From: a virus
Taxonomy: Duplodnaviria > Heunggongvirae > Uroviricota > Caudoviricetes
IMG/VR virus record: IMGVR_UViG_2687453454_000001
Coordinates: 1-34,836 of that record
DNA: 34,836 nucleotides
Direction: 5' to 3' (one strand)
Translations under genes and position numbers: made by a program
Part shown: in pieces, positions 25,780-26,702 of the stretch
Layout: every line of letters starts with the position of its first letter
Position numbering within the stretch: position 1 is the first letter of the stretch
Notes under the pieces: generated by a model
Databases searched by the model: none
What the model saw: only the letters and a program-made list of their open reading frames with translations
Told to the model about the DNA's origin: nothing

Positions 25780-26196
25780 ATGAATAAATTTTATAATGGC
25801 TCGTTTTATCTATTCGCTATGAAAGAAGTCTATGAAGAGGCGGGTACCTGGCCTGTGAACGGGGCTGATGTTGATGATGAAACAATGGCAATTTATACGG
25901 GAGTCGCACCGCAGGGTAAAATGCTGGGTTCAGATAAAGAGGGCAATCCTGCCTGGGTTGATATTCCGCCACTCTCAGCAGAACAACAGATTGTCCAGGC
26001 TGAACAGAAAAGAACAACATTGCGTTCAATTGCTGATAATGAAATATCCTGGCGGCAGGATGCTTATGATGCGGAGATCGCGACGGCAGAAGAAACCGCC
26101 GCGTTGTCTGAATGGAAAAAATACAGGGTCTTACTGATGCGTGTTGATACAGCTAAACCCGAATGGCCTACACCCCCGGTGGAACAGGCCAGTTAA
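25780..26196 (+). CDS. G: tail fibre assembly protein (gpG/Tfa-like), currently expressed orientation
   Basis: C-terminal ...EETAALSEWKKYRVLLMRVDTAKPEWPTPP matches the Tfa C-terminal signature; ATG at 25780 follows the H stop by 2 nt. Confidence 0.8.
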   Translation: MNKFYNGSFYLFAMKEVYEEAGTWPVNGADVDDETMAIYTGVAPQGKMLGSDKEGNPAWVDIPPLSAEQQIVQAEQKRTTLRSIADNEISWRQDAYDAEIATAEETAALSEWKKYRVLLMRVDTAKPEWPTPPVEQAS

Positions 26197-26419
26197 TATC
26201 AGGTGCACTGGAGGTATCTACCGCCTCCAGTTCATCAAGGTAATCCAGCCACAAATTGTACTGTGTGAGTTCATCACCTTTCAGCCGACCAATTGCCGCC
26301 TTACCGGGCCACTGCTTACTGTTGACATATTCAGTGGCTTCATTAATCAGGAGACGTTTTTTATTCGCTGCCGCACTGATAGCGGAATCTTTTGCGGTTA
26401 TTACCGTGAAACTACCCAT
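26168..26419 (-). CDS. alternative tail fibre assembly protein, C-terminal-domain ORF (inverted copy)
   Basis: 83 aa; ...EATEYVNSKQWPGK...APDINWPVPP matches the Tfa C-terminal domain; converges on and overlaps the plus-strand tfa 3' end. Confidence 0.6.
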   Translation of the reverse strand: MGSFTVITAKDSAISAAANKKRLLINEATEYVNSKQWPGKAAIGRLKGDELTQYNLWLDYLDELEAVDTSSAPDINWPVPPGV

Positions 26420-26702
26420 TTAACATCACCTCCCAAATCTGCGTTTCACTCTCTTCTGCATCTGAACCGTAGAAGCCAATTAATTCTACGATGATCTCTC
26501 CTGACTCCTTTCTGGCATTCAGTACAGGATTGGGGGTTAACACAGATACAAAATCGACCGCGATATCGCCATCATTCAGGATGCTAAAATCGAATGAATC
26601 GGCAACATCATCAACTTCAATCGTTAATACATCACCTTTTGCCGACACTTTCATGACGTAATCAGAACGCTGCGGGGTAAAGATTGCTTTCATCAGAACC
26701 AT
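26412..26702 (-). CDS. alternative tail fibre assembly protein, N-terminal-part ORF
   Basis: 96 aa; ends 8 nt after the next ORF's ATG; sits between H' and the Tfa C-terminal-domain ORF. Confidence 0.5.
   Translation of the reverse strand: MVLMKAIFTPQRSDYVMKVSAKGDVLTIEVDDVADSFDFSILNDGDIAVDFVSVLTPNPVLNARKESGEIIVELIGFYGSDAEESETQIWEVMLNG

Follow-up and report, generated by a model that had tools for sequence, protein, structure and literature searches.

Two conserved genes stand in place of a single tail-fibre assembly gene in the alternative cassette of an invertible prophage segment and probably act as a bipartite chaperone

Introduction

The window analysed here is the whole 34,836-nucleotide stretch of a caudoviricete record (IMGVR_UViG_2687453454_000001), which holds the tail region of a P2-like prophage with an invertible segment of the Mu G type. 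On its plus strand the tail-fibre gene is followed by a single tail-fibre assembly (tfa) gene, and on its minus strand the alternative fibre tip is followed by two small open reading frames (ORFs) of 96 and 83 amino acids, which overlap, with a TAA standing just before the second ATG. This layout, described in an earlier note on the same DNA, was borne out on the sequence, and it raises the question of whether the alternative tip is served by a genuine two-gene arrangement or by the remains of one decayed gene. In the model of tail-fibre assembly (Tfa) proteins outlined in PMC9608196 (citing North et al. 2019), which is based on TfaMu and Pam3 gp25, a non-conserved N-domain binds the distal fibre and a conserved helical C-domain drives trimerisation. 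Here the two ORFs are examined with respect to their conservation, their junction, their relatives and their likely division of labour; the 83-amino-acid ORF is termed B (ORF83) and the 96-amino-acid ORF, for reasons given below, A (ORF93).

The invertible segment and its two tip cassettes

The features of the locus are as follows.

24587-25777 (PGAP limits; the ORF is 24566..25777), plus strand: fibre gene, with a Phage_tail_fib N-terminus and fibre repeats.
24587..25408, plus strand: Sc, the constant part of the P2 gpH-like fibre gene, which reaches to the left crossover (domains: Phage_tail_fib N-terminal, Phage_fiber_2).
25394..25419, no strand: left crossover site, hix/gix-like, TTCTCCAAAACCTTCAATTGGGAGAA, within the fibre gene; breakpoint 25401-25408.
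25409..25777, plus strand: Sv, the fibre tip that is fused to Sc and hence expressed in the orientation of the window.
25780..26196, plus strand: canonical one-piece tfa serving Sv, 138 amino acids (Caudo_TAP positions 6-130 of 131, E 3.8e-30).
26168..26419, minus strand: B (ORF83), a mini-Tfa of 83 amino acids matching the C-terminal half of Caudo_TAP.
26412..26693, minus strand: A (ORF93), matching phrog_2398; ORF96 if the ATG at 26702 is used.
26693..27106, minus strand: S'v, the alternative tip of ~135 amino acids, ending ...AVGRWF, unexpressed here (phrog_2712 C-terminus).
27093..27118, no strand: right crossover site, hix/gix-like, which repeats the left one imperfectly in inverse orientation; breakpoint 27104-27111.
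27224..27793, plus strand: serine DNA invertase of the Gin/Cin/Hin/Pin type (Resolvase N-domain, E 6.6e-53, and HTH_7).

The breakpoints were obtained by aligning the window to a flipped Escherichia coli genome, which delimits a ~1.7-kb segment (about 25401-27111) and in which the Sc stretch is collinear in both orientation states. In the window S'v appears as a startless ORF of 135 amino acids (26693-27100, minus strand), and its stop codon shares one nucleotide with the ATG of A (TGATG). The plus-strand tfa is, as the earlier note had it, a single gene, named 'tail fiber assembly protein' by PGAP and matched by Caudo_TAP over its full length. The description of the minus-strand ORFs as an inverted copy of this gene did not hold, as ORF83 shares just 32% identity with it over 34 residues; likewise, a comparison of Sv with S'v detected no similarity between these tips.

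Among 5,426 complete E. coli genomes, 7 contain a 1-kb stretch of the segment; it has the orientation of the window in three and is flipped in four. In the flipped genomes Sc is in frame with S'v, which yields a 410-amino-acid 'phage tail protein', with ORF93 and ORF83 next on the same strand. The invertible switch is live, and the alternative cassette, itself intact, is in use. The locus shares with the Mu G, P1 C and e14 P segments (inverted by Gin, Cin and Pin) an adjoining serine invertase, two convergent sets of tip and chaperone, inverted sites of which one lies inside the fibre gene, and the occurrence of both orientations in natural genomes, each giving an in-frame fibre. It differs from them in that one set uses the A+B unit rather than a single Tfa of the U/U' type. 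A search for a bidirectional terminator at the convergent 3' overlap found a fold no better than that of shuffled sequence (z -0.84), and the signal for internal promoters within the segment was not above chance.

Two genes under purifying selection

As the window contains many spurious ORFs of 80-125 amino acids, the length of the two ORFs is not by itself above chance, and their significance rests on homology, conservation and the ratio of non-synonymous to synonymous change (dN/dS). Nearly all complete homologues of the 96-amino-acid ORF begin at its second ATG (26693), which gives a protein of 93 residues. Seventeen close loci were compared, comprising P2-like prophages without an invertase, one Mu-like prophage and invertible P2-like prophages; all 17 keep A (93 amino acids) and B (82-86 amino acids) with an identical 8-nucleotide overlap, ATGGGTAG. 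For A, pairwise dN/dS ranged from 0.05 to 0.15, and for B from 0.12 to 0.24, at dS values reaching beyond 2 (that is, saturation), and the value for A is the lowest among tip, A and B. A and B are two real genes. The earlier note had offered a genuine two-gene arrangement and a decayed gene as alternatives, and had itself named the conservation of both ORFs as separate genes in relatives as the finding that would speak against decay; exactly this was encountered many times over, with purifying selection on both.

The case for decay would be that ORF83 is what remains at the 3' end of a canonical tfa after loss or frameshifting of its 5' part, and ORF96 a chance or degraded ORF. It can draw on the PGAP annotation, which in E. 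coli chromosomes marks the 83-amino-acid gene as an incomplete pseudogene, on the restriction of its Caudo_TAP match to the C-terminal half, and on the unexpressed orientation of the cassette in this window. Against these points, at least 58 clusters (90% identity) contain the 82-86-amino-acid protein in intact form, the pair and its overlap are laid out identically in the 17 loci, dN/dS is well under 1 for both genes, and in the four flipped E. coli genomes the cassette is oriented for expression behind a fused fibre that is intact. Furthermore, when 13 canonical Tfa proteins of 139-146 amino acids were used as tblastn queries, their residues 1-60 found no match in any frame upstream of B, so that no relic of a canonical N-domain is seen there; only residues ~62-146 matched, to ORF83. 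Short partners that consist of a C-domain only also recur behind A homologues of at most 45% identity, and phrog_3792, a profile of 78 positions for short 'tail assembly chaperones', fits B over positions 7-77, that is, over nearly its whole length. Conservation and selection together refute the decay reading, which is left with a negligible probability, and the RefSeq pseudogene call for the 83-amino-acid gene in E. coli is wrong. That the alternative host-range cassette works is almost certain.

The junction between A and B

On the minus strand the junction reads GGGAGGTGATGTTAAATGGGTAG. A ends in AAT GGG TAG, with the ATG of B embedded within that end, and since an in-frame TAA sits immediately 5' of this ATG, B is unable to extend upstream. 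B has a Shine-Dalgarno sequence of its own (GGAGG, 9 nucleotides upstream), and a well-spaced one is present in every clade. In each case the preceding gene supplies the signal: the G-R-W codons at the end of the fibre gene (GGnAG(G/A)TGG) form a Shine-Dalgarno sequence 7-10 nucleotides ahead of the ATG of A, and the terminal R/W-E-V codons of A (GAGGT) form the one that serves B. Translation of tip, A and B thus looks chained, or coupled.

The same junction invites a different reading, in which a +1 frameshift at GGG-TAG (with the P-site Gly-tRNA moving from GGG to GGU while the A site holds the stop codon) would fuse A to B in one protein of ~174 amino acids. B does lie in the +1 frame relative to A, so that a slip would skip the TAA; AAT GGG TAG is invariant in the 17 close loci, the fused product would be as large as a typical Tfa, and at least one natural A-B fusion exists (see below). 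The slippery site is, however, not conserved more widely. Distant pairs differ in both junction and frame offset, with a 1-nucleotide overlap and frame offset 2 in L024 and L026, a 1-nucleotide gap in L027, an 11-nucleotide overlap in L010 and an in-frame stop-start in L011 and L028, and in every clade B keeps its own ATG with a well-spaced GGAGG. The shift site of the release factor gene prfB (RF2) has a Shine-Dalgarno spacing of ~3 nucleotides, but here the Shine-Dalgarno sequence of B stands ~12 nucleotides from the GGG codon. Site and spacing are not conserved across the family in the manner of a prfB-like frameshift, the junction being conserved in the close clade only, and we regard programmed fusion by frameshifting as very unlikely.

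B is a stand-alone Tfa C-domain

The C-terminal Tfa signature that the earlier note had seen in the 83-amino-acid ORF was confirmed by the match of B to Caudo_TAP (PF02413), which scored 67.8 bits against a Pfam gathering cut-off of 22.1 (E 1.4e-18) and covers positions 60-130 of 131; the N-terminal half is absent, and with it the full two-domain architecture of the family. Alignment of B with canonical Tfa proteins shows that ~55 central residues are missing and the C-domain is complete, the short N-terminal motif of B (MGSFTVIT) aligning with the canonical N-terminal 'N-A/G-F-Y' stretch. B is up to 80% identical to the C-domain of 139-146-amino-acid Tfa proteins of Citrobacter and E. coli. 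The at least 58 clusters mentioned above consist of stand-alone homologues of 82-86 amino acids, and many B homologues in Citrobacter records carry the name 'tail fiber assembly protein'. In E. coli, PGAP/RefSeq lists ORF83 as a pseudogene ('missing N-terminus') and takes ORF93 for a hypothetical protein. An AlphaFold2 (AF2) model of B consists of three helices followed by an extended tail.

A belongs to an unrelated family of small beta proteins

A is acidic (pI 4.05) and soluble, and has neither a signal peptide nor a membrane segment; its AF2 model (pLDDT 82) is all-beta, with eight beta strands. The check proposed in the earlier note, a comparison of the 96-amino-acid ORF with the Tfa N-domain, was carried out and gave no match by profile, by fold or as a relic in any frame. 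When a profile of 60 diverse A members was set against the canonical Tfa profile with hhalign, the probability was 1.3%. A Foldseek comparison of the A model with the PDB returned no significant match and no Tfa structure among the matches, and no similarity was established to the solved Tfa N-domain folds (TfaMu 5YVQ and Pam3 gp25). No Pfam or NCBIfam family was found for any of the 60 diverse members, and a sequence search found no solved structure for the family.

A does match phrog_2398, if weakly (E 9.2e-5, with residues 7-89 of A aligned to positions 6-87 of the 132 in the profile), as do 31 of the 60 family representatives (best E 2.9e-8), and 12 of the 60 match the N-terminal ~90 positions of phrog_24907; both are PHROG entries without an assigned function. 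A word-indexed search of 5.8 billion proteins yielded 33 homologues of A, 73-97% identical and mostly from Citrobacter, of which the complete ones are nearly all 93 amino acids long. A profile search of 1.84 billion representative proteins extended the family to 110 clusters, most of them 85-110 amino acids in length, and a profile scan of genome contigs with the A1 alignment detected one locus. A is a member of a small beta protein family unrelated to the Tfa N-domain, and it is paired with a Tfa that consists of the C-domain only. The idea that the alternative tail-fibre assembly function is split across two ORFs is probably right in functional terms, but the pair is not a single Tfa gene that has been cut apart.

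Tip, A and partner travel together across phages

The genomic contexts of 26 A-family genes, from phages of Enterobacteria to those of Bacillus, were examined. They include a lambdoid prophage, the Pseudomonas phages PAN70, SM1, phiAH14a and MR13, Achromobacter phage vB_Ade_ART, a Rhizobium phage, Bacillus phage Shbh1 and several metagenomic contigs. In each of the 26 contexts the A gene begins no more than a few bases from the stop codon of a gene for a large tail-fibre protein, whose final ~130 residues are homologous to S'v, with identity falling from 98% to ~31% and with the alignment to S'v spanning just 22-64 residues in the five most distant contexts. The fibre ends in GRW(F/Y/K/I/N) in 24 of the contexts, the exceptions being L027 and phiAH14a. 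Wherever downstream sequence existed, a small partner of 56-122 amino acids begins at -11 to +2 nucleotides after A, and the distant A homologues (at most 45% identity) likewise lie between a fibre and a small partner, with other junctions and offsets.

In four lineages this partner consists of a Tfa C-domain on its own: the window clade and L024 (Caudo_TAP C-domain), L027 (Phage_tail_APC/phrog_4912) and phiAH14a (phrog_4912), the latter matches being to the C-terminal part of 'tail fiber assembly' families. In PAN70 and SM1 it belongs to phrog_2687, an entry of unknown function, and the B partners of the other lineages matched no family or recognisable Tfa domain. An N-terminal (F/I)xW/V motif is common to all B partners, in variants such as MGSFTVIT, MGSITWK, MATFIWS, MxIDWS and MSNFKWR; the rest of the protein is divergent. 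Tip, A and B co-diverge (Spearman 0.79-0.88), which linkage alone could cause. In the close clade the C-terminal half of B drops out of this pattern, consistent with recombination with the C-domains of ordinary Tfa proteins. Compared with the tip that it follows, A is the more conserved (L012: tip 68%, A 83%; L017: tip 75%, A 86%).

Two gene neighbourhoods may be recorded separately. One relative has an acyltransferase right behind the cassette. Bacillus phage Shbh1 has the order YomR-like protein, A, small ORF, XkdX, which would put A at the position of XkdW; as a match to the Pfam XkdW family was not found, the likeness is one of position only.

Natural fusions of A and B

Searching long A-family members by BLASTP with the known B partners brought up two candidate fusions. 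P0104 is a metagenomic protein of 185 amino acids in which residues 1-89 belong to the A family (phrog_2398, E 8e-18) and residues 98-184 can be aligned with all of the vB_Ade_ART B protein (31% identity, E 7e-11); the joint lacks a methionine, and the gene lies behind a fibre that ends ...IAIGRWF. Since it is a singleton on a 2-kb contig, P0104 is given moderate weight as a natural A-B fusion. The second candidate, P0101, retains an internal methionine and may be a frameshift artefact. The ten longest A-family members contained no Pfam domain, and hence no fusion of A to Caudo_TAP that Pfam would recognise.

A bipartite tail-fibre assembly chaperone

The reading that we favour, and think likely though well short of certain, is that tip, A and B are a three-part cassette in which A and B together act as a bipartite tail-fibre assembly chaperone. 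As to the mechanism, we infer binding of A to the tip, contact of A with B, and a need for both proteins in assembly. The cassette is silent in the orientation of the window; once the invertase flips the segment, Sc is joined in frame to S'v, and A and B come to be transcribed behind the Sc-S'v fibre, being expressed, on this reading, in that state only. A, as a small acidic beta-sandwich, would recognise the GRWF-type tip domain, and B, as a helical Tfa C-domain, would bring three chains together, its short conserved N-terminal (F/I)xW/V motif perhaps docking on A. The pair would in this way replace one two-domain Tfa with its variable, fibre-binding N-domain and its conserved, oligomerising C-domain. 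The predicted structures, all-beta for A and three helices plus an extended tail for B, fit these two modules. As A has neither homology nor a likeness of fold to a known Tfa N-domain, its proposed role as a chaperone is derived from position, co-occurrence and fusion, and the B partners of several lineages that show no Tfa domain also weigh against the model. More broadly, we see about an even chance that the A family (phrog_2398) is a widespread and hitherto unrecognised class of tip-specific chaperone adaptor that binds one family of receptor-binding tip domains, those of ~130 amino acids ending in GRW(F/Y/K), and recruits interchangeable helical mini-Tfa proteins non-covalently.

The main rival to this bipartite chaperone holds that A is a component of the virion, a distal cap or adhesin on the fibre tip that aids receptor binding, and that B is the sole assembly factor. 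There is a precedent in gp38 of T2/S16-type phages, a tip adhesin that stays on the fibre, and two relatives of A are annotated as 'structural protein', which hints that A stays on the virion and fits an accessory or adhesin role equally well. These labels were, however, assigned by similarity and could not be traced to proteomics, and the literature searched yielded nothing specific on the proteomics of A-family proteins. That A is more conserved than the tip and has the lowest dN/dS is the opposite of what a diversifying, receptor-contacting adhesin would show, and its fusion to a helical module of the B type suits the architecture of a chaperone better. We consider a purely virion-borne role unlikely. 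An accessory role at the virion tip is not exclusive with that of a chaperone; TfaMu also remains bound to its fibre, so a virion-bound A is compatible with the chaperone model.

A further proposal would have A as a moron, an unrelated passenger such as a gene for superinfection exclusion or lysogenic conversion, which came by chance to lie between fibre and tfa. Morons are often found near tail-fibre genes, and the relative with an acyltransferase after the cassette would be in keeping with this. The proposal is scarcely credible: A is acidic and soluble, without membrane segment or signal peptide, its translation is coupled to that of the genes on both sides, the order of the three genes is constant from Enterobacteria to Bacillus phages, and here A lies inside the invertible segment and so is expressed only with its tip.

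Relation to known assembly proteins

If A and B form a bipartite chaperone, their proposed division of labour is that of the Tfa model set out in PMC9608196. B shares with the canonical Tfa proteins (Mu gpU/TfaMu, P2 gpG and lambda Tfa) the conserved C-domain and the place downstream of a fibre gene, and with that of Mu also the location inside an invertible segment of the G type; it differs from them in that the variable N-domain (~55 residues) is missing and a separate, non-homologous gene, A, stands in its place. Pam3 gp25 of a cyanophage has an N-terminal beta-sandwich and a C-terminal helical trimerisation domain that correspond to the two modules which A and B would provide together, but carries both on one polypeptide, and PDB fold searches detected no similarity between A and gp25.

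The use of two separate proteins thought to serve one fibre, as proposed for A and B, is also met with in T4 gp57A and gp38, both of which are required as a matter of observation, and in ORF32/33 of phage S144, for which the role is only predicted (PMC7432712). Both S144 chaperones are GpU-like by HHpred and closely resemble one another; A and B, by contrast, are unrelated and complementary. We know of no relationship of gp57A or gp38 to A or B. A two-subunit Tfa like A+B was not described in the literature searched, an absence that is no proof of novelty.

Implications and occurrence in deposited phage genomes

For annotation, an 83-amino-acid 'pseudogene' and a 93-amino-acid 'hypothetical' protein turn out to be conserved genes under selection. 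If the bipartite model is true, the roles of Tfa reside on separate polypeptides, which, along with a natural fusion, would provide a clean test of the two-domain model, and tip, A and B must move together between phages or tailocins. The retargeting of phages, P2/P4 particles or R-type tailocins with tips of this family would then fail if the recognisable 'tfa' alone were moved along with them, A probably being needed too. Split two-subunit tail-fibre assembly proteins would, on the same condition, extend from Enterobacteria to Bacillus phages. By tblastn, the tip was found in 113 deposited phage genomes, 108 of them from Pseudomonas phages, and A-like genes in 92; the module of tip, A and small partner is present in ~100 deposited Pseudomonas phage genomes, where all three genes are mostly annotated as hypothetical.

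Junction sequences with two roles

The alternative fibre tip and the two genes that follow it (A, a member of the phrog_2398 family, and B, the 83-aa gene with a Caudo_TAP C-terminal domain) are joined by motifs that are both translated and placed to recruit ribosomes. The first of these junctions, and the overlap between the two convergent assembly genes, lie at:

window 26693-26712: fibre–A junction, with equivalent junctions in the related loci L003-L034
window 26168-26196: 29-nt 3′ overlap of the convergent assembly genes, canonical tfa and B, on opposite strands

At the fibre–A junction of the window and of L003-L034, GGnAG(G/A)TGG provides the codons for the conserved G-R-W at the fibre C-terminus and also the Shine-Dalgarno sequence of the next gene; likewise, GAGGT encodes the terminal R/W-E-V of A and serves as the Shine-Dalgarno sequence for B. 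As the C-terminal codons of both genes have this second role, a dual coding constraint may lie behind part of the amino-acid conservation at the fibre and A C-termini. In the 29-nt overlap, the quasi-palindromic DNA TGGCCTACACCCCCGGTGGAACAGGCCA encodes the conserved C-terminal W-P-x-P-P of both assembly genes, on opposite strands. The RNA of this overlap was found to fold no better than shuffled sequence (z -0.84).

Neighbouring genes

Genes flanking the invertible segment, or the tip–A–B cassette in related loci, are:

window 27801-31043, minus strand: gpU-like tail gene and 914-aa tape-measure gene, directly after the invertase
L003/L004 4726-5769, also in L005/L006: Acyl_transf_3 gene, immediately 3′ of the cassette
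L008 (a Mu-like prophage) 5499-7157: OLD-family nuclease gene (DUF2813/AAA_15/OLD TOPRIM), just 3′ of the cassette

The gpU-like and tape-measure genes lie on the strand opposite to the baseplate and fibre genes, a layout common to the related loci L007 and L009, whereas in P2 itself they share one strand. One possibility for the Acyl_transf_3 gene, which adjoins the cassette in non-invertible P2-like relatives, is lysogenic conversion by an O-antigen acetylase acting on the receptor that this fibre uses. The OLD-family nuclease gene may be a defence gene.

Partial tip matches and possible fusions

In the DMS3-like Pseudomonas phages DMS3, MP42, H72 and PM105, the match to the S′v-type alternative tip is limited to the first ~80 residues (50-54% identity), and no alignment to its GRW-ended C-terminal half was found in these records. 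In Bacillus phage Shbh1 the gene order is:

L011 4001-4688: YomR-like fibre, A-family gene, 74-aa helical ORF, XkdX-domain ORF

A helical motif that looks like the C-terminus of the 74-aa ORF closes several of the long A-family proteins (P0076, P0079, P0119), a hint of additional fusions among phages of Firmicutes.

Annotation of the 83-aa gene

Naming of the 83-aa gene across NCBI records is inconsistent: it is a pseudogene according to RefSeq PGAP in complete E. coli genomes (the EC26 and 10R chromosomes), and other entries, from E. coli and Citrobacter, give the identical protein (P0277) the name ‘tail fiber assembly protein’.
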